Assembly: GCA_050257375.1 (NCBI GenBank)
Contig: JBLMWT010000060.1
Location: 1-58,124 of the forward strand
Origin: Sphingomonadaceae bacterium
GTDB taxonomy: Bacteria; Pseudomonadota; Gammaproteobacteria; Burkholderiales; SG8-39
Direction: 5' to 3'
Length of the DNA stretch: 58,124 bases
Shown here: piece by piece, positions 47,707 through 56,676 of the stretch
Layout of the letters: every line of letters begins with the position of its first letter
Numbering within the stretch: the first letter of the stretch is position 1
The notes under the pieces: generated by a model
Databases searched by the model: none
What the model saw: the letters and a program-made list of their open reading frames with translations, nothing else
What the model was told of the DNA's origin: nothing
Made by a program: the position numbers and the translations under genes

Positions 47707-48912
47707 ATGCTGCTCGAATCCCGTGTCAAGAAAGTGATCGCCAGGCTGCGCGCCAATGCGAGCCTGCCGGTGGCGATCGAGCTGTGGAACGGCGAGCGCT
47801 ACGAGCTATCGCCCGCGCCGACCGTGACGCTGAGGATTCCCTCGGCCTCGGCGCTGCGCTACTTCGCCAACCCGGACCTCGGCAAGCTCGGCGAGGCCTA
47901 TGTCGAAGGCCGTGTGGACGTCGAGGGACCGATCACCGAGGCGCTGCGGGCCGCCGAAGGCCTGTCACGCCATGCCGGGCAGGCAAAACGCGGGCGTCTG
48001 CCGGTGCTGCGCAACCTGCACACCCGGAAGGTCGACGCCGCATCGATCCAGTACCACTACGACGTCTCGAACGATTTCTACGCGCTGTGGCTCGACCGCA
48101 ACATGGTTTATTCCTGCGCGTACTTCAAGACGGGCGACGAAACGATCGATGTCGCCCAGGAGCAGAAGCTCGACCACATCTGCCGGAAGCTGCGCCTGCG
48201 CCCGGGCGAGAAACTGCTCGACATTGGCTGCGGCTGGGGAGCGCTGGTGCGCTGGGCGGCCAAGCACTACGGCGTGGACGCGACCGGCATCACGCTATCG
48301 CACAACCAGCACGCGCTCGCCAACCAGCGCATCGCCGACGAAGGTTTGGGCGCGCGCTGCCGCGTGCTGCTGCAAGATTACCGCGACGTGCCCGGCGAAG
48401 GGGTCTACGACAAGATCTCCTCGGTGGGCATGTTCGAGCATGTCGGCCTCAAGAACCTGCCGCTCTACTTCCGCAAGGTCCACTCGCTCCTGCGCGAAGG
48501 CGGCCTGGTTATGAACCACGGCATCACCTCGGTCGACCCGGACAGCCGCTCGGTCGGCCTGGGCGCGGGCGAGTTCATCGGCAAGTACGTGTTCCCGCAC
48601 GGCGAGCTGCCGCACGCGTCGCTTGTGCTCAAGGAGATGGCGCGCGCCGAGCTGGAGGTCATGGACGTCGAGACGCTGCGACAGCACTACGCGCGAACAC
48701 TGTGGCACTGGAGCGAACGCTTCGAAGCGAATCTCGATGCCGCGCGCCGGCACGCCGGCGAAAAGCGCGTGCGCATCTGGCGCGCCTATCTCGCCGGCTG
48801 CGCGCACGCGTTCGAGCAGCGCTGGGTGTCGATCCACCAGGTGCTCGCGGCGAAGAGCTCGGATCCCAAGGCCAAGCCCCTGCCCTGGACGCGCGCCTGG
48901 ATCTACGAATGA
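47707..48912 (+). CDS. cfa: cyclopropane-fatty-acyl-phospholipid synthase
   Basis: It has YHYDVSNDFYALWLD, the LLDIGCGWG SAM motif and MFEHVG. Confidence 0.9.
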   Translation: MLLESRVKKVIARLRANASLPVAIELWNGERYELSPAPTVTLRIPSASALRYFANPDLGKLGEAYVEGRVDVEGPITEALRAAEGLSRHAGQAKRGRLPVLRNLHTRKVDAASIQYHYDVSNDFYALWLDRNMVYSCAYFKTGDETIDVAQEQKLDHICRKLRLRPGEKLLDIGCGWGALVRWAAKHYGVDATGITLSHNQHALANQRIADEGLGARCRVLLQDYRDVPGEGVYDKISSVGMFEHVGLKNLPLYFRKVHSLLREGGLVMNHGITSVDPDSRSVGLGAGEFIGKYVFPHGELPHASLVLKEMARAELEVMDVETLRQHYARTLWHWSERFEANLDAARRHAGEKRVRIWRAYLAGCAHAFEQRWVSIHQVLAAKSSDPKAKPLPWTRAWIYE

Positions 48913-49457
48913 CGAGCCCTACCGCGCACTGGCACGCCGAGCATGCGAACTTCACCAAATTGCTCGACGTGCTCGACCGGCAGCTGGCGCTCTTTCGTGC
49001 CGGCGAGAATCCGAACTACGAGCTGATGCTGGATATCGTCAGCTACCTGCGTCATTTCCCGGACCGCCACCATCACCCGCGCGAGGACGTGGCGTTCACG
49101 CGTCTCGCTGCGCGCGATCCGGCGATGCAGGTGAAGGTGAACCGTTTGCTGCAGGAACACCGCGTGCTCGCCAAGGCGGGCGACGACCTGCTCGCGCTGC
49201 TGAACCAGGCCGCCGACGAGGCGATCATCGCGCGCGCCGAGGTCGAGGCCACGGCCGCGACGTACCTGATCTACTACCGCCACCATATCGCGAGCGAGGA
49301 GCGCGACATCCTGCCGCGCGCGGCCGAGCTGCTCACGCCCGAGGACTGGAGCGCGGTGGCCGCGGCCGTGCCGCCCGGACACGACCCGCTGTTCGGCGAG
49401 CAGTCCGAAGAGCGCTACCGCGAATTGCGCCGCCTGATCGCGCTCGCCTCGAGCTAG
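48909..49457 (+). CDS. hemerythrin-domain (HHE cation-binding) protein
   Basis: The ATG forms an ATGA overlap with the cfa stop. Repeated His/Glu ligand motifs are present (HAEHANF, HHHPREDVAF, HHIASEERDILP). Confidence 0.75.
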   Translation: MTSPTAHWHAEHANFTKLLDVLDRQLALFRAGENPNYELMLDIVSYLRHFPDRHHHPREDVAFTRLAARDPAMQVKVNRLLQEHRVLAKAGDDLLALLNQAADEAIIARAEVEATAATYLIYYRHHIASEERDILPRAAELLTPEDWSAVAAAVPPGHDPLFGEQSEERYRELRRLIALASS

Positions 49458-50194
49458 GCGAGCGCGCGCGCGACGAGCGAGGCTCCGCTTGCGAGCAGGA
49501 GCGGCGCGACCGCGCGCATCAGCGTCTCGCGCCGCAAGCGCATGAAGAGGTGCGAGGCGACCGAGATGCCGACCCAGGCCGCAGGCAGCGCGAGCGCCGC
49601 GCCGAGCCACACCCGCGGATTGCTCATCAGGCCGGTCAGCACGAACGCGGCAAGCCGCAATGAGATGCTCGCCACCGAAGTAAGCGCAAGCGTGGCGCGG
49701 AACGACTCCTTGGACAGGTTGCGCTGCGCGAGGTAGATCGCATATGGCGGCCCGCCCGCGCCGAACAGCGCGCTGGTCACGCCGCCGGCGAGGCCGGCGG
49801 GATAGGCCCAGCCGCGCCCGACGGTGCCGCGCGGGCCGCGCGCGGCGAGCGAGTAGAGCGCGAAGGCGACCACGAAGCAACCGAGCGCCAGCATGCCGGC
49901 CCGACGCGGCATGTTGACCAGCAGCGAAGCGCCCAGCGCGGTGCCGACCAGGATCATCGGCACCAGCCGCGCGACCTCGCCACGTACGACGTGCTGCGGC
50001 GCCTCCAGCCCGAGGCGCAGCGAATTGGAGAGGTCGACGAGCACGAATACCGCGAGCGCGAACGGCAGCGGCACGAAGTGCGTCGCGAGCGGAATTGCGA
50101 TCAGCGCTGCACCGAAGCCGGTGATGCCGTAGACGAGCGCGGCCGCGAGCGCAATCGGCGCCAACGCGAGCAGTGCCGCGGTTCCCCCGGGCAC
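49454..50194 (-). CDS. TauE/SafE-family (sulfite/organosulfonate exporter-like) membrane protein
   Basis: 246 aa with 7-8 TM segments. It has ITGFGAALIAIP and GAGGPPYAIY motifs and a GTG start. Confidence 0.78.
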   Translation of the reverse strand: MPGGTAALLALAPIALAAALVYGITGFGAALIAIPLATHFVPLPFALAVFVLVDLSNSLRLGLEAPQHVVRGEVARLVPMILVGTALGASLLVNMPRRAGMLALGCFVVAFALYSLAARGPRGTVGRGWAYPAGLAGGVTSALFGAGGPPYAIYLAQRNLSKESFRATLALTSVASISLRLAAFVLTGLMSNPRVWLGAALALPAAWVGISVASHLFMRLRRETLMRAVAPLLLASGASLVARALA

Positions 50195-50203
50195 AAGCGC
50201 CGC

Positions 50204-50839
50204 TTAGAGCTTGACCGAGAGGTTGAGCGAGAAACGGCCGGTGAGCTCGGCGCTATCCAGCACGTGCCCCTCGATCGCCGCGAGCAGCTCGGGGCCTTTG
50301 AACGCGCCCGACACGGGGCAGTTCGGCACGTCGAGCGCGTACAGCGTGAAAACGTAATGGTGCACCAGCGGATCGTTCCAGGGCGGACAAGGACCGTCGT
50401 AGCCGAAGTAGTTGCCCGCCATGTCCTTGTCGTTCGCGAACCAGGAAGTGTAGTCATTGACGCCTTGGCGTGCGCCGCGCGCGGCCTGCGGACCGGGCTT
50501 GCCCCGCGGCGTGACGCCGTTCGAGAACTCGCCCTCGGCGATCGGCCCGTCGAAGGGTTTCAGGTCGACGAGCAGCCAGTGATGGAAATTCACGCGTGGC
50601 AGCGTTTTCGGAACCTGCCGATCCTCCTTGTTGACGTCGTCGGGCCGCGAGGGCACGTCGCGGTCGTGGCACACCAGCACGAGCGAACGCGTGCCGGGCG
50701 GCAGATCGCTCCATGCGAGCTGCGGATTTCGATTGTCGGACAGCCGGACATGTGTCTTTGCATCGGGTACCGCGAAGGCGCAGCGGCCCGGAATTTTCCC
50801 CATGTCGGAAAAGCTCTCGCTTGTCAGCTTCACGGTCAT
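50204..50839 (-). CDS. YbhB/YbcL-family PEBP (Raf-kinase-inhibitor-like) protein
   Basis: The start MTVKLTSESF at 50839 forms an ATGA overlap with the upstream stop. It has YDGPCPPWNDPLVHHYVFTLYALD. Confidence 0.8.
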   Translation of the reverse strand: MTVKLTSESFSDMGKIPGRCAFAVPDAKTHVRLSDNRNPQLAWSDLPPGTRSLVLVCHDRDVPSRPDDVNKEDRQVPKTLPRVNFHHWLLVDLKPFDGPIAEGEFSNGVTPRGKPGPQAARGARQGVNDYTSWFANDKDMAGNYFGYDGPCPPWNDPLVHHYVFTLYALDVPNCPVSGAFKGPELLAAIEGHVLDSAELTGRFSLNLSVKL

Positions 50840-51603
50840 TCTCCATTCATGATCCGGGCCATTATAAGGTCGCCACCTGCGCTCGGATTCATGCGCCCCA
50901 GCGCAGCAACGTAGCGGCGAAATGGAAGCGCATAGCGAGCCTCCAGCCCTTCGGCGCGCACGCGCAACGCGCGCCACGCCGCGCGCTCGGGATATCCCTT
51001 GAGCGCGATCGCGATCAGGTTGGGATCGGAGAGCGCCGGCATGCACAGCACCGCACCGCCGAAGGCCCGCTCGAGCCGCTGCAGGTAGCTGTCGAGCCGA
51101 GGGTCGTCGCTCATGTAATTGGCGACCAGCACGCCCTTCGCGGCGAGCGCGAGGTAGCACGCGTCGTAGAACTCGCTGGATGCGAGCCGCGGCACCTGCT
51201 CGCCGTCGTCGAAACCGTCCACCATCACCAAGTCGCAGCATTCCGGCTCGAGTGCCTCCGCCCCGTCGCCGATCTCCACCTGCAGGCGCGCATCGTCGGG
51301 CGGCAGTGCGAAATGCTGGCGGGCGGCCGTGAGCACGCGCCGGTCCCGCTCGATCACCTTCACTCGCGTCGCTCGGAGGAAACGATGGAAGTACTTTGGC
51401 AGCGAGCCACCCCCGAGGCCGATCATCAGCGCGCGCCGCGGCCGTGGGTGAAACAGCAGGAACGCCATCATGCAGCGCGTGTAATCGAGCGCGAGCGCGT
51501 ACGGGTCGTCCAGGCGCATCGCGCTCTGGATCGCTTCGCCGCCGATGTGCAGCTGGCGCAGGCCGCGTCGCTCGCTCACCGCCACCGCCGGGGAGCGCTT
51601 CAC
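50836..51603 (-). CDS. spermidine-synthase-like (class I SAM-fold) protein
   Basis: GTG at 51603 forms a GTGA overlap with the MFS stop. It has LMIGLGGGSLP, VKVIERD and LVMVDGFD. Confidence 0.7.
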   Translation of the reverse strand: MKRSPAVAVSERRGLRQLHIGGEAIQSAMRLDDPYALALDYTRCMMAFLLFHPRPRRALMIGLGGGSLPKYFHRFLRATRVKVIERDRRVLTAARQHFALPPDDARLQVEIGDGAEALEPECCDLVMVDGFDDGEQVPRLASSEFYDACYLALAAKGVLVANYMSDDPRLDSYLQRLERAFGGAVLCMPALSDPNLIAIALKGYPERAAWRALRVRAEGLEARYALPFRRYVAALGRMNPSAGGDLIMARIMNGE

Positions 51604-52793
51604 GGCGCAACCGCGCGCACGTGCCGCATCAGCACGAGCACCAATCCGGCGCCGGCAAAGGACAGCGCTGACGCCGCGAGGATCGGCGCGGCATAGCTGC
51701 CCCACGCGTCGTAGGCCGCACCGGCGAGCGGCGGACCGACGAGCGTACCGACGCCCGGTGCGGTGTACAGCAGGCCGATGATGCCCGATACCGCGCGCGG
51801 CCCGTACAGGTCCATGATGAGGGTCGGCGCCAGCGCGACGAAGCCACCGTAGAAGGCGCCGAACAGCAGCGCGAACGCCACTAGCAGCCAGTAGCTCGTG
51901 GTGAGCCACCAGACGATCAGCATCGCGCCGAGCCCCACGTACATCACCGCGAACGACGGCACTCGCCCGAGCCGGTCGGCGACGCCCCCGATGGTGAAGC
52001 GACCGAGCAGGCTGCCCAGGCCGATGAGGCTCACCAGCGCCACGCCCTGGGCCTCGCTGTAGCCCGCGTCCTGCGCGTAGCTTGCAAGGTGCACCATGGG
52101 CACGAACAGGCCGACGCACACCAGCATGCTCGAGAAGTACAGTAGCCAGAAGGCCTTCGTGCGCAGCGCCTGCCCGAGCGTGGCGCCCGGAAGCGTGGCG
52201 CGGTCGGTGCGCGTGGCCCCGCGCGCGCCGTGGCGCGCCGGATCGTCGTCGATCGCCAGCGCCGCTGCGCCGGCGAGCAACAGCACGACGGCCGCGAGCA
52301 CCTGGTAGGCCGTGCGCCAGCCGACCAGCCCGATCAGCCAGGTCGCCGCCAGCGGCACCAGGAAGTTGCCGGCGCCGATCCCGGCGACTGCCAGCCCCGA
52401 GGCGAAAGCGCGGTTTGCCAGGAACCACGGTTGCACGGCCCCCACGGACGGCACGTACGTCAATCCGATGCCGATGCCCAAGCCCACGCTGTAAGTGACG
52501 TACAGCAGGTCCACGGACCGCGCGACGCTCGCCAGGCCCAGCGCCGCCACCATGCAGGCCACGCCCGCCAGTGCGACCCGGCGCGGACCGAAGCGGTCGG
52601 CGAGCATGCCTCCCGGTGCGCCGAGCGTGAACCACAGAAACGCGCTCACCGAGAACACCAAAGACACGTCGGCGCGCGAGGCGTCGAACTCGGACTGGAA
52701 AGCCTTGAAGAAGGCGGCGAAGGAATACGCCGCGCCGAAACCCACGAACATCAGGGTGAACGCCGCCGCCACCACGACCCAGCCGTAGTACAT
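51600..52793 (-). CDS. MFS transporter (oxalate/formate-antiporter / monocarboxylate-like)
   Basis: The start MYYGWVVVAAAF at 52793 is in frame with the track ORF. It has 12 predicted hydrophobic segments and the GMLADRFGPRRV loop motif. Confidence 0.8.
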   Translation of the reverse strand: MYYGWVVVAAAFTLMFVGFGAAYSFAAFFKAFQSEFDASRADVSLVFSVSAFLWFTLGAPGGMLADRFGPRRVALAGVACMVAALGLASVARSVDLLYVTYSVGLGIGIGLTYVPSVGAVQPWFLANRAFASGLAVAGIGAGNFLVPLAATWLIGLVGWRTAYQVLAAVVLLLAGAAALAIDDDPARHGARGATRTDRATLPGATLGQALRTKAFWLLYFSSMLVCVGLFVPMVHLASYAQDAGYSEAQGVALVSLIGLGSLLGRFTIGGVADRLGRVPSFAVMYVGLGAMLIVWWLTTSYWLLVAFALLFGAFYGGFVALAPTLIMDLYGPRAVSGIIGLLYTAPGVGTLVGPPLAGAAYDAWGSYAAPILAASALSFAGAGLVLVLMRHVRAVAP

Positions 52794-52813
52794 GCGCCGC
52801 CGCACGCCGCGCC

Positions 52814-53926
52814 TCAATAGATCGCGCCGCGCGCCGCGATCGGCCACAACGCCTCGACCGCGCCGCCGCGCACGCACACGTACCAGTCGTGCAGATTCAC
52901 CGTGGGATCACAGTGCCCTGGTACGAGCATGAGCTTTTCTCCGAGCGCCGGCGCCTGCGCCCCGGGCGCGATCTCGATGACGCCGTGCTCGTCGGAGGCG
53001 CGCACGTAGCGCAGCCCCGGCCGCTGCCACACGACCGGCAGACCGGAGTCGACGCTCGAGGCTTTGAGGCCCGCATCCAGCACGGCGCGCTCCGCGGTCG
53101 GCCGGCTCATCACCGTGGACAGCACGAACAGCGCGTGCTCGAAGCGAGGCAGCGGCGCGGCCCACTCGTTTCTCGCGTAGTCCGCGTCCATGAAGACGTA
53201 GGAGCCCGGCTGGATCTCGTCGAAAGCATGCGATTCGATTTCGAACGCGAACGTGCCGCTGCCCCCGCCGGTGACGATCGGGCAGGCGATGCCCGAGGAC
53301 TCGATGAGCGCGCGCGTATCGCGCGCGGCGCGCGCGGCGGCCTCGATTGCGGCGCGCCGCTCGGCCGTCGGGCGCATGTGCTGGGCGGCGCCATGGTAGG
53401 CCTGCAGGCCGGCGAAGCGCAGCGCCGGTTGCGCGGCAACCTCGCGTGCGAGCGCGAGCGCCGCCTCGCCCGGCGCGACGCCGCAGCGCCGCGCGCCGAT
53501 GTCGATTTCCACGTACGCGTCGAGCCGGGCACCTGCCGCCGCCGCGGCGGCGGCGAGGTCGCGCACGTTGCCCGCGTCGTCGATGCACACACCGATGCGC
53601 GCGCGCGTGGCGAGCGCGGCCAGGCGCCCGAGCTTCGCGGCGCCGACCACTTCGTTCGATACGAGCACGTCGGAAATGCCGCCGTCGACCATCGCTTCGG
53701 CCTCGGATACCTTCTGGCAGCACACGCCGACCGCACCCGCGGCGATCTGCCGCTTAGCGATCTCTGGACACTTGTGCGTCTTGGCGTGAGCGCGCACGCG
53801 GACGTTCTTGCCTTGGACGCATTCAAGCAGCGTCTTCTGATTCCGCTCGAAAGCGTCCAAATCGATAACCAGCGCCGGGGTATCGACCTGCGCAAGGTCC
53901 TGGCCCGGGCTCGCCGGCGGCAGCAT
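52814..53926 (-). CDS. DSD1-family PLP enzyme (D-serine dehydratase / D-threonine or D-3-hydroxyaspartate aldolase-like)
   Basis: The start MLPPASPG at 53926 is in frame with the track ORF. It has TPALVIDLDAFERN, the PLP lysine in RAHAKTHKCPEIA, and a C-terminal LVPGHCDPTVN. Confidence 0.83.
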   Translation of the reverse strand: MLPPASPGQDLAQVDTPALVIDLDAFERNQKTLLECVQGKNVRVRAHAKTHKCPEIAKRQIAAGAVGVCCQKVSEAEAMVDGGISDVLVSNEVVGAAKLGRLAALATRARIGVCIDDAGNVRDLAAAAAAAGARLDAYVEIDIGARRCGVAPGEAALALAREVAAQPALRFAGLQAYHGAAQHMRPTAERRAAIEAAARAARDTRALIESSGIACPIVTGGGSGTFAFEIESHAFDEIQPGSYVFMDADYARNEWAAPLPRFEHALFVLSTVMSRPTAERAVLDAGLKASSVDSGLPVVWQRPGLRYVRASDEHGVIEIAPGAQAPALGEKLMLVPGHCDPTVNLHDWYVCVRGGAVEALWPIAARGAIY

Positions 53927-53928
53927 GG

Positions 53929-55113
53929 TCACGCCGCAGCCGGCCGGCTCGCGCGCTGCTGCAGCGCAAGCCACACGATCGCCGCCATCACGATGACGAT
54001 GAGCGGCAGCGCCGCGTAGTTGATCCGGCTCCAGCCGCCGTTGGTGACGATCAGCCCGGAGGAAAACGAAGACACGGCCATCATGATGAAGATTGCGGAG
54101 TCGTTCGCGCCTTGCGCCTTGGCGCGCTCCTCGGGTCGGTAGGTCTCCGTCAGCAGGGTGGTCGCGCCGATGAAGAGGAAATTCCAGCCTACGCCGAGGA
54201 GGACGAGCGCGAGCCAGAACTCGGTCAGCGCGATGCCCGACAGCGCGATGCCGACCGACGCGGCGTTCAGCACTGCGCCCCCGAACATGACGCGCAGTGC
54301 GCCGAAGCGCCGAATCAGCCCGCCGGTGATGAACGAGGGCAGGTACATGCCGACCACGTGCGAGGAAATCACGAAAGTGGCGGCTTTGTAGGGGTGGCCG
54401 CAGATCTCCATCGCGATCGGCGTCGAAGTCATGAGGAAGTTCATGACCCCGTAGCTGATCGCCGCGCAGGCCACCGCGACGATGAATTTGGGCTGCGCCG
54501 CGAGCTTGGACATCGGCCGGCCGGTCGCTGCCTGCACGGCCGCCCCGGCGTGCGGAATGCGGATGAAGTTGAGCACCGTCATGGTCGCTAGCGATACCAG
54601 GATGAGAGCAAGGTAGGCGCCAAGGAACTTCTCGGGCAGCAAATCGACCGTGATGCGGCTGGTCGTTGGCCCGAGGATCCCGCCGACCAGGCCTCCGGCG
54701 AGCACGAGCGAAATCGCCGTGGGTCGATATTGGGCGCTTGCGACGTCCGCCGCGGCGAAGCGATAGTACTGGCCATAAGCGTTGTACACGCCGAACACCA
54801 GCGTCGCGAAACACAGCAGCCAGAAGCTGTGCACCCGGATCGCGCCTGCGCACAGCAGGGCGCCGGCGACGCCCCACAGCGTGCCCAGCATCAGGCCGCG
54901 GCGCCGCCCGACACGCTTCATGTGCAGGGAGGCAAGCATCGTCGCGGACGCGCCGCCGAGCACCCAGAATGTCACTGGCAGCGTGGCGAGGCTGCGATTC
55001 GCCGCCAGCGAGAGCCCTGCCAGGCCGTTGATCGCTATCAGCGTCGAATTGTTGGTCATCAGCAGCGCCTGGCAGGCAGTGAGCAGGGCGACATTGCGCC
55101 GTTCACTGATCAT
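53929..55113 (-). CDS. MFS transporter
   Basis: The start MISERRNVALL at 55113 is in frame with the track ORF. It has 12 hydrophobic segments and the HMKRVGRRRG loop. Confidence 0.8.
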   Translation of the reverse strand: MISERRNVALLTACQALLMTNNSTLIAINGLAGLSLAANRSLATLPVTFWVLGGASATMLASLHMKRVGRRRGLMLGTLWGVAGALLCAGAIRVHSFWLLCFATLVFGVYNAYGQYYRFAAADVASAQYRPTAISLVLAGGLVGGILGPTTSRITVDLLPEKFLGAYLALILVSLATMTVLNFIRIPHAGAAVQAATGRPMSKLAAQPKFIVAVACAAISYGVMNFLMTSTPIAMEICGHPYKAATFVISSHVVGMYLPSFITGGLIRRFGALRVMFGGAVLNAASVGIALSGIALTEFWLALVLLGVGWNFLFIGATTLLTETYRPEERAKAQGANDSAIFIMMAVSSFSSGLIVTNGGWSRINYAALPLIVIVMAAIVWLALQQRASRPAAA

Positions 55114-55165
55114 ATATACAGTATCGGCAACGAAGAGCGAAGACTCGATTCTACCGGTGAGCGCA

Positions 55166-56299
55166 ATGCCGGACGACGCAAAGAACGAAACACGCTCGAT
55201 CGCGAGCTGTGCATCGCACGTGCTGCTCGAGCACAAGTCGCGCGGCGCGCTGTCGCGCCCGCAGGGGCGTTTCGAGCGCGAGCAGCGTACGCCCTTCGAC
55301 GACGGCTGGACGCGCGACGACGAGCCGCCCGCGACACTCCGGACGAGCGTGACCGAAGAACGAGCGCGCTCGATCATCCAGACGAACGATTCGCCCGACC
55401 TGCCCTTCGACCAGTCGATCAATCCGTACCGCGGCTGCGAGCACGGCTGCGTGTACTGCTACGCGCGGCCGAGCCACGCCTATCTCGAGCTCTCGCCGGG
55501 GCTCGACTTCGAAAGCCGGCTGTTCGCGAAGGTGAACGCGGTCGAAAGGCTTCGTGCCGAGCTCGCGCGTCCGGGCTACGTGCCCAAGCCCATCTCCCTC
55601 GGCGCCAATACCGACTGCTACCAACCGATCGAGCGCCGCTACCGCATCACGCGCGACCTGATCGAGCTGCTCTCGCAATGCAGGCATCCGCTCACCATCG
55701 TCACCAAGTCGGCGCTCGTCGAGCGCGACCTGGATCTTCTGGGACCGATGGGCCAGGCGGGTCTCGCCAAGGTGTTCGTCTCGCTCGGCACGCTCGACCG
55801 CGAACTCGCGCGCCGGCTCGAGCCGCGCGCGGCGAGCCCACAGCGCCGGCTCGACACGATCCGCGCGCTCGCCGCGGCAGGCGTGCCGGTCGGAGTGATG
55901 GTCGCGCCGGTCGTGCCTGCGCTCTCGGACAAGTCGCTCGAGGAATCGATGGGCGCCGCGGCGGCGGCCGGCGCCAGCATGGCCGGCTACCAGCTGCTCA
56001 GGCTGCCGAACGAATTGAAGTCCCTTTTCCGAGAGTGGCTCGCCACCCACTACCCCCTGCGCGCGGAGCACGTCATGAGCGTGCTCCAGCAACTGCGCAG
56101 CGGGCGCGACAACGATCCACGCTTCGGCACGCGCATGACTGGAACGGGCAATTACGCCGAGCTGCTCGCAAAGCGCTTCGAGATCGCGTGCCGGCGCCTC
56201 GGGCTGAACGGCGAGGAGCGCGGCGGCGTCGCGCGCCGCGCGCTCGACCGCTCGCAATTCGTGCCGCCCTCTCCCGGGGGTCAGATGCGGCTGCTTTAG
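55166..56299 (+). CDS. radical SAM protein, PA0069/SplB-like (COG1533) family
   Basis: The ATG at 55166 is in frame with the track ORF. It has the CEHGCVYC (CX3CX2C) cluster motif. Confidence 0.83.
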   Translation: MPDDAKNETRSIASCASHVLLEHKSRGALSRPQGRFEREQRTPFDDGWTRDDEPPATLRTSVTEERARSIIQTNDSPDLPFDQSINPYRGCEHGCVYCYARPSHAYLELSPGLDFESRLFAKVNAVERLRAELARPGYVPKPISLGANTDCYQPIERRYRITRDLIELLSQCRHPLTIVTKSALVERDLDLLGPMGQAGLAKVFVSLGTLDRELARRLEPRAASPQRRLDTIRALAAAGVPVGVMVAPVVPALSDKSLEESMGAAAAAGASMAGYQLLRLPNELKSLFREWLATHYPLRAEHVMSVLQQLRSGRDNDPRFGTRMTGTGNYAELLAKRFEIACRRLGLNGEERGGVARRALDRSQFVPPSPGGQMRLL

Positions 56300-56301
56300 T
56301 G

Positions 56302-56676
56302 ATGTTGCGCAGGCTCTGGATCGGGGTCGGCTGGGCGCTGGTGGCGGGCGTCATATACGGCTCGCTGATGCACTCTCCCCCGTCGCTCGGCTTCCAGCAG
56401 GGAGACAAGCTCGAGCACCTGGGCAGCTATGGCCTTCTGATGTTCTGGTTCTGCCAGCTGTACGTGGAGCCGCGCGTCCGCCTTGGCTACGCGCTCGGCT
56501 TCGTGGCCCTCGGGGTGGCGCTCGAGTTCGTGCAGGGCTGGACCGGCTACCGCGACTTCGAGGTCGCCGACATGTTCGCCGACGCGGCAGGCGTAGCGCT
56601 GGGCTGGGGCGCGGCGCTCATCTTCCCTAAAGCGCTGCCAGGAGCGGAAACAGGAACGCGCTCGACAGCCCGTTGA
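56302..56676 (+). CDS. VanZ-family membrane protein
   Basis: 124 aa with four TM segments. It has the motif GDKLEHLGSYGLL. Confidence 0.65.
   Translation: MLRRLWIGVGWALVAGVIYGSLMHSPPSLGFQQGDKLEHLGSYGLLMFWFCQLYVEPRVRLGYALGFVALGVALEFVQGWTGYRDFEVADMFADAAGVALGWGAALIFPKALPGAETGTRSTAR

Follow-up and report, generated by a model that had tools for sequence, protein, structure and literature searches.

A lineage-restricted, operon-like string of six genes falls into two coupled blocks and encodes a probable methyltransferase with a spermidine-synthase fold

In a stretch of DNA from a Sphingomonadaceae bacterium (assembly GCA_050257375.1, contig JBLMWT010000060.1), which we analysed over its whole length of 58,124 nt and refer to as the window, six co-directional genes occupy positions 49454-55113 of the minus strand, as established from a map of open reading frames (ORFs) and a scan of start codons. 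This string is real, operon-like and restricted to one lineage. It brings members of known families together in an arrangement that has not been described, and is not a new kind of system. In the reading that we favour, and consider reasonably probable, it consists of two separable, translationally coupled modules that lie side by side in one operon-like string with a conserved LexA box, and the spermidine-synthase-like (SpeE-like) protein of the second module is a likely methyltransferase. The features are as follows.

55113-53929, minus strand: MFS1, a transporter of the major facilitator superfamily (MFS) with 12 transmembrane segments (12-TM); ATG start, 394 amino acids (aa); first gene of the string, block A.
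53926-52814, minus strand: DSD, a predicted D-threonine-aldolase-type, pyridoxal-phosphate (PLP)-dependent enzyme of the DSD1 family; ATG start, 370 aa; block A.
52793-51600, minus strand: MFS2, an MFS transporter resembling the oxalate/formate and monocarboxylate (OFA/MCT) carriers; ATG start, 397 aa; optional first gene of block B.
51603-50836, minus strand: the SpeE-like protein, PRK04457-type, with a spermidine-synthase fold; GTG start, 255 aa; core of block B.
50839-50204, minus strand: a phosphatidylethanolamine-binding protein (PEBP) of the long-form YbhB/YbcL type; ATG start, 211 aa; optional cassette of block B.
50194-49454, minus strand: a TauE/SafE (TSUP) permease, here TauE; GTG start, 246 aa; last gene of the string, core of block B.
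55104-55123, minus strand: a palindrome resembling a LexA (SOS) box, TACTGTATATATGATCAGTG, overlapping the MFS1 start codon within the 52-nt divergent control region.
55166-56299, plus strand: a PA0069-family radical-SAM gene, the divergent neighbour (NF033668, 484 bits against a cut-off of 360).

The original prediction had named these six genes and their families correctly. All gathering scores of Pfam were passed, with the domains MFS_1 (MFS1 and MFS2), Ala_racemase_N and D-ser_dehydrat, Spermine_synth, PBP, and TauE. The junctions are likewise as first described: a 2-nt gap behind MFS1, a 20-nt gap behind DSD, a GTGA overlap at 51600-51603 between MFS2 and the SpeE-like gene, an ATGA overlap at 50836-50839 between the latter and the PEBP gene, and a 9-nt gap in front of TauE. 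The GTG start of the SpeE-like gene is backed by homologues that start at the same MKR... position, and the ATG of MFS1 by tblastn alignments, in which 43 of 45 loci align from residue 1-6 onwards. At its far end the string meets a convergent hemerythrin-domain gene, which ends at 49457. Judging by this spacing, the six genes almost certainly form one transcript in the window genome, starting at the 52-nt divergent control region. Internal terminators were not above chance (six weak sites against 3.6 ± 1.8 expected, none of them at a junction), in a promoter and terminator scan that is uninformative in the window's DNA of 68% G+C. No Rfam element or riboswitch was found at E ≤ 1 in 48500-56500.

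The two-block structure emerged from related loci. A scan of a genome collection yielded 80 of these, all in metagenome-assembled genomes of uncultured soil Burkholderiales, with SpeE-like proteins at 60-87% identity; the presence of a gene was counted only at loci with a sufficiently long flank. TauE adjoins the SpeE-like gene in 67 of 69 loci and DSD is found in 38 of 43, while MFS2 is found in 44 of 63 and the PEBP gene in 27 of 69. The complete set of six genes occurs in 14 of the 40 assessable loci. The distances at the junctions follow a similar division. MFS1 and DSD are tightly joined in 44 of 45 loci. The overlap of MFS2 with the SpeE-like gene is kept in 45 of 49 loci, a -4 overlap joins the SpeE-like gene to the PEBP gene in 26 of 28, and in loci that have no PEBP gene the SpeE-like gene overlaps TauE directly (39/45). 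The spacing between DSD and MFS2, on the other hand, is bimodal (at most 30 nt in 15 of 35 loci, more than 150 nt in 17), and about half of the loci are interrupted at the junction of DSD with MFS2 or the SpeE-like gene, by inserts of up to 4 kb. Since gene presence and junction distances both separate MFS1-DSD from (MFS2)-SpeE-(PEBP)-TauE, the string consists of two coupled blocks: block A, comprising MFS1 and the D-threonine-aldolase-type enzyme, and block B, comprising the SpeE-like gene and TauE with MFS2 and the PEBP gene as optional members. The expectation that all six genes would be conserved as a unit was thus borne out for the tight coupling, but not for the set as a whole, as the PEBP and MFS2 genes are often missing and the block junction is interrupted. 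The suggestion that the overlap of MFS2 and the SpeE-like gene marks a functional unit held up better, because the overlaps of the SpeE-like gene with MFS2, PEBP and TauE are all conserved.

Four of the loci (L003, L004, L005 and L008) are among the closest relatives of the window, with flanking genes that are 92-93% identical. The PEBP gene is present in two of them and cleanly missing in the other two. Their SpeE-like proteins, at 79-83% identity, are less conserved than their neighbours.

Mapping by tblastn revealed that both flanks of the string are syntenic across the lineage too; the genes concerned are the PA0069-family radical-SAM gene and those for VanZ, MATE, glutathione-reductase-like and NUDIX-MBL proteins. 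This synteny of the whole region, together with the fact that the partners are unlinked in every other lineage examined, would be expected if the adjacency were simply inherited, with unrelated genes packed into a compact region and no function shared between them. We regard this as a rather unlikely explanation. The 4-nt start/stop overlaps persist over 60-87% protein identity despite many gains and losses of genes around them, and the SpeE-like gene re-forms its overlap with TauE upon loss of the PEBP gene. Moreover, the flanks have many insertions, yet the SpeE-like/TauE and MFS1/DSD pairs hold.

Outside the clade, the arrangement dissolves. A scan of metagenomes seeded with a 49%-identical SpeE-like relative also yielded 80 loci, and block B is kept at those where the SpeE-like protein is at least 55% identical to that of the window. 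At the 52 metagenome loci with SpeE-like proteins of 41-52% identity, we found no TauE and no PEBP gene, and an MFS2-like gene lies nearby in one (L127). The recurrent neighbours at these loci looked unrelated (DsbA/HCCA-isomerase-like and cupin-like proteins) when judged by eye from the sequences, with no domain searches, and clustering of flank ORFs was noisy because of spurious ORFs in high-GC DNA. Further away, SpeE-like homologues of 28-44% identity on chromids and plasmids, which came from Ralstonia, Burkholderia, Paraburkholderia, Cupriavidus, Neisseria, Sphingobium and Pseudoalteromonas, had no other gene of the string within 5-7 kb, and the partner genes were not found around PEBP and DSD homologues elsewhere. 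The arrangement is therefore restricted to one clade, with SpeE-like proteins of about 55% identity or more. A wider conservation of the neighbourhood did not appear: at relatives of 28-52% identity the partners are not linked, bar a few cases of MFS2-like or DSD genes.

These few DSD cases are found at L092, L100 (244-2116) and L101 (6025-10359), where the SpeE-like gene is followed, 110 nt to 3.6 kb downstream, by a DSD homologue (66-68% identical); the shortest distance is that in L100. The SpeE-like proteins at these loci are about 50% identical to that of the window, and TauE, PEBP and MFS2 are missing. The proximity could be a remnant, or it could reflect a recurrent linkage between SpeE-like proteins and D-threonine aldolases.

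The original prediction had read all six genes as one pathway for the import, conversion and export of a small amino or polyamine-like metabolite, and had seen in MFS2 and the SpeE-like gene the split form of a family named 'fused MFS/spermidine synthase' (NF037959). It could name no matching pathway, and we also found no characterised pathway with this gene set. The very tight junctions in the window, the 14 loci that hold all six genes, the widely kept MFS2/SpeE-like overlap and the DSD homologues near SpeE-like genes of another clade are all in keeping with a single pathway. Genuine split forms of the fused family also exist. In Pseudoalteromonas, a 207-aa membrane protein (L085:4295-4918), whose gene overlaps one for a 294-aa synthase-like protein, scores 91.5 bits over positions 6-182 of the NF037959 profile, in which the membrane half takes up positions ~6-182 and the cut-off is 40 bits. 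However, no gene of the string matches this membrane half. The SpeE-like protein matches only the synthase half (positions 249-393) and, at 37.0 bits, stays below the cut-off; MFS1 and MFS2 have no match to NF037959 even at E ≤ 10. MFS2 compared with the Pseudoalteromonas membrane half gives a BLASTP E-value of 3.2, and the TauE profile is unrelated to that half (hhalign probability 0.1%) and to DUF1275/YoaK. The neighbours of the SpeE-like gene in the window are instead a full 12-TM OFA/MCT-like MFS transporter and a TauE permease, which belong to unrelated families. We therefore reject the split-fusion interpretation, which was negative by NCBIfam search at E ≤ 10, by BLASTP and by hhalign against both the genuine split half and DUF1275. 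With the PEBP and MFS2 genes often missing, the two halves parted by inserts of up to 4 kb and the partners unlinked outside the clade, a single pathway of six genes seems very unlikely to us, and we prefer two modules.

We also looked for fused relatives in 1.84 billion representative proteins, and considered the 150 nearest clusters at 50% identity, most of which are 240-300 aa long. None of the five longest relatives that were read (P0150, P0158, P0173, P0245 and P0246) carries an MFS fusion. By eye, P0158 and P0245 have N-terminal TPR repeats, and P0173, P0246 and P0150 have other soluble N-terminal extensions. P0158, P0245, P0173 and P0246 are relatives at 38-47% identity; one extension looks GNAT-like and one uracil-DNA-glycosylase-like, again by eye. 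The TPR fusions hint that substrates of SpeE-like relatives could be proteins.

The name of the fused family turned out to be an annotation trap. The label 'fused MFS/spermidine synthase' is given by the Prokaryotic Genome Annotation Pipeline (PGAP) to small unfused proteins (278-299 aa) with scores of 42-48 bits, which barely clear the 40-bit cut-off via the synthase half alone (L081 6926-7762, L084 4782-5681 and L082 4023-4856, in RefSeq plasmid or chromid records). Because unfused proteins pass this cut-off, the PGAP name is not evidence of fusion. Stand-alone relatives from Burkholderia and Sphingobium, at 38-43% identity to the SpeE-like protein, bear the name as well. Relatives often adjoin genes for small membrane proteins, such as YoaK/DUF1275 or the 207-aa membrane half. 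In Sphingobium the DUF1275 gene overlaps the SpeE-like gene, and on plasmid pBN1 of Paraburkholderia aromaticivorans (L082 4023-9041), three SpeE-like paralogues lie within 5 kb, near YoaK/DUF1275, HPr and CopG genes. A small membrane protein is thus a recurrent neighbour of the SpeE-like family (L081, L082 and L084).

The SpeE-like protein itself differs from spermidine synthases in a residue that determines which cofactor is used. Its full-length match among hidden Markov models (HMMs) is to NF003380 (PRK04457, 'polyamine aminopropyltransferase'), at 264.5 bits against a cut-off of 304; the scores for NF002010 (54.9, cut-off 260) and TIGR00417 (36.4, cut-off 249.55) are far lower, and true spermidine synthases are matched weakly, at 42 bits or less. 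When the protein is aligned with SpeE of T. maritima, G65 in the motif GLGGGS stands at the position of Asp101 (GGGDGG), so that GxG(D/E)G lacks its acidic residue. Two other residues have counterparts: E85 corresponds to the ribose-binding E121, and D129 to the amine-activating D170. GLGGGS does not vary among 21 close and 14 distant relatives at 35-87% identity. E85 and D129 are both invariant among the close relatives (set A1), and the Asp is invariant in set A2. In GxG(D/E)G, the role of the acidic residue is to bind decarboxylated S-adenosylmethionine (dcSAM) by its aminopropyl amine and to shut out S-adenosylmethionine (SAM), and loss of this residue marks methyltransferases (PMC3725402, PMC10349129). 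A D103I exchange abolishes spermidine-synthase activity and creates methyltransferase activity, and the analogous D101I exchange in the T. maritima enzyme lowers kcat about 2000-fold (PMC3725402). The original prediction had proposed to check whether the residues that bind dcSAM and putrescine are kept. The ribose-binding Glu and D129 are, whereas the acidic residue that binds dcSAM is lost, which makes the suggested polyamine-like role doubtful.

Structural comparison points in the same direction. An AlphaFold2 model of the SpeE-like protein (mean pLDDT 78) has as its first-ranked Foldseek match the C-terminal domain of human METTL13 (5wcj; E = 3.3e-12, target-normalised TM-score 0.68), with spermidine synthases at ~7e-11 or weaker. 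Motif I of the SpeE-like protein, GLGGGSL, is identical to that of this METTL13 domain, which also has no acidic residue in GxG(D/E)G, although the two proteins are only 26% identical and true spermidine synthases give comparable E-values. A second likeness is to a fungal enzyme, a member of the 'spermidine synthase family' with an attached 7-TM domain, which was recognised by the missing D/E in GxG(D/E)G and proved to be an N-terminal histidine methyltransferase (NHMT; PMC10349129). The SpeE-like polypeptide of the window differs from it in having no membrane domain of its own. Since G65 replaces Asp/Glu, GLGGGS is invariant, 5wcj is the top structural match and the published rule links loss of the acidic residue to methyl transfer, we infer that the SpeE-like protein is probably a SAM-dependent N-methyltransferase rather than a polyamine synthase. 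More generally, 'spermidine synthases' of the PRK04457 type lack the dcSAM residue and are probably methyltransferases.

Alternatively, the SpeE-like protein could be a genuine polyamine aminopropyltransferase, with MFS2 and TauE moving polyamines or their precursors. Its best NCBIfam matches (NF003380 and NF002010) are so named, it has the fold of spermidine synthases, and it conserves the ribose-binding Glu and the equivalent of T. maritima D170. Nevertheless, we find this highly doubtful, given that every equivalog score falls under its cut-off and that the residue whose exchange (D101I/D103I) abolishes activity or cuts it ~2000-fold (PMC3725402) is an invariant Gly across the family. The same criterion exposed the fungal 'spermidine synthase family' protein as a methyltransferase (PMC10349129), and the cluster contains no speD or other polyamine gene.

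Several points weigh against our favoured reading, that is, two separable modules of which the second contains a methyltransferase. All related loci belong to one lineage with syntenic flanks, so conservation is perhaps in part simple descent. The proximity of DSD homologues and SpeE-like genes at L092, L100 and L101 (3 of 52 loci), in a different clade, hints that the two modules are functionally linked. The HMM matches of the SpeE-like protein carry the name 'polyamine aminopropyltransferase', the Foldseek E-values for METTL13 and true spermidine synthases are only ~20-fold apart, and the first 37 residues of the model are of low confidence. Co-transcription is deduced from gene spacing alone, and the LexA box perhaps acts on the divergent radical-SAM gene alone.

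The enzyme of block A could be assigned to a subfamily. Over its full length, DSD matches D-threonine aldolases with 424 bits (7dib) and 412 bits (4v15, the enzyme of A. xylosoxidans, AxDTA) and BhcC with 372 bits (6qkb), and it reaches only ~92 bits with D-Ser and D-hydroxyaspartate dehydratases. In the alignment, K49, Y177, H183, H338 and D340 correspond to Lys59, Tyr187, His193, His347 and Asp349 of AxDTA. DSD thus keeps the lysine that carries PLP, the PLP-stacking Tyr187, His193 as the base, and the His and Asp ligands of Mn2+. The His/Asp metal pair and His193 set aldolases apart from dehydratases, which have a His/Cys pair (PMC4401734). We therefore rejected a D-serine dehydratase, and the DSD1-family gene product is predicted to be a D-threonine-aldolase-type enzyme with the features of EC 4.1.2.42. 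Membership in the beta-hydroxyaspartate cycle was rejected as well. The protein scores 468.6 bits with the BhcC equivalog, under its cut-off of 690, and no bhcA, bhcB or bhcD gene was seen in the ORF lists or in tblastn maps made with the window's own genes. What D-threonine aldolases do physiologically is, in general, 'still largely unknown' (PMC4401734).

Between the two blocks, the commonest insert in related loci is a RidA gene (Endoribonuclease L-PSP, PF01042), present in 11 of them (L016, L019, L023-L025, L029, L034, L036, L042, L052 and L069). RidA enzymes clear the reactive enamine/imine products of PLP enzymes, and so the RidA insert fits a D-amino-acid catabolic role of block A. At other loci, unrelated inserts of up to 4 kb are found at the same position.

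Taken together with the gene contents, these assignments suggest a possible mode of action for each module. Module A, in which MFS1 accompanies a metal- and PLP-dependent aldolase-type enzyme, probably imports a D-beta-hydroxy-alpha-amino acid. Candidate substrates are D-Thr, D-allo-Thr or something like D-3-hydroxyaspartate, and the enzyme would cleave the substrate in a retro-aldol reaction to glycine and an aldehyde; in relatives, RidA is often added to the module. In module B, the SpeE-fold enzyme and TauE are the constant core, with MFS2 and PEBP as dispensable cassettes. The SpeE-fold enzyme would most likely transfer a methyl group from SAM to an amine, whether that of a small molecule or that of a protein N-terminus. 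As its gene is translationally coupled to genes for membrane proteins, it may work close to the membrane.

By analogy with NHMT, one could go further and picture block B as a previously undescribed, membrane-associated methylation module made up of several genes, in which TauE is the membrane partner of the SpeE-fold methyltransferase, MFS2 and PEBP are optional, an amine or a protein N-terminus is modified, and the whole is induced in the SOS response via the shared LexA box. We would call this a long shot, but if it were true, block B would provide the first conserved operon partner for bacterial PEBPs. In any case, block B is a conserved, coupled neighbourhood for three families without an assigned bacterial function (the SpeE-fold enzyme, the long PEBP and TauE), which opens the way to a targeted experiment despite the lack of cultures from the clade.

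The LexA box, TACTGTATATATGATCAGTG, is the sole match in the window to CTGTAT-N6-WCAG, with 0.02 expected. Compared with the CTGT-N8-ACAG palindrome, the window box, CTGTATATATGATCAG, agrees at 15 of 16 consensus positions. Of 31 related loci, 30 have a CTG-N10-CAG box in the corresponding position, and many have a perfect CTGT-N8-ACAG. The window box lies 43-62 nt upstream of the start of the PA0069-family gene. In a passage of a preprint that cites Cirz 2006, PA0069 is given as one of 15 SOS genes of P. aeruginosa (bioRxiv 10.1101/2022.03.14.484287), and the window resembles LexA-regulated PA0069 of Pseudomonas aeruginosa in having a PA0069-family gene with a CTGT-N8-ACAG-type box upstream. 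The difference is that the predicted operator in the window also overlaps the start codon of the six-gene string. Its position suggests that LexA could gate the string as well, and a conserved LexA box over the start of a transporter/aldolase operon is a regulatory oddity. In some relatives (the radical-SAM/MFS1 region of loci L002-L079), the first codons of MFS1 contain the box, which there encodes 'TVY'.

The transporters are less narrowly classified. MFS1 matches Pfam MFS_1 with 90 bits and no specific NCBIfam subfamily. MFS2 matches MFS_1 with 153 bits, and we call it OFA/MCT-like only, because its best subfamily matches fall short of their cut-offs (SfMCT, 213.2 against 320; OFA TIGR00890, 132.9 against 374.85). 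TauE matches PF01925 over residues 12-240, that is, over its full length, with 89.6 bits against a gathering score of 32.6.

The PEBP scores 114.3 bits with PF01161 (cut-off 24) and 69.6 bits with TIGR00481 (cut-off 57.75), and matches the E. coli YbhB structures 1vi3 and 1fjj. It looks cytoplasmic by eye, with no signal peptide evident. The DxDxP and GYxGPxPP...H motif regions align with those of E. coli YbhB/YbcL; unlike these, the window PEBP is about 50 residues longer, through internal insertions, and its gene lies inside an overlapping operon, from which it is nonetheless dispensable (27/69 loci). A published survey found YbhB-family genes to be rarely in conserved operons (PMC8793217). 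Long-form PEBP homologues elsewhere (L088, L089 and L090) adjoin genes for AraC or other helix-turn-helix regulators. On pAt of Agrobacterium tumefaciens (L090 5920-7379), the PEBP gene is followed by one for a class I SAM methyltransferase, which is unrelated to the SpeE-like protein (BLASTP E = 0.15).

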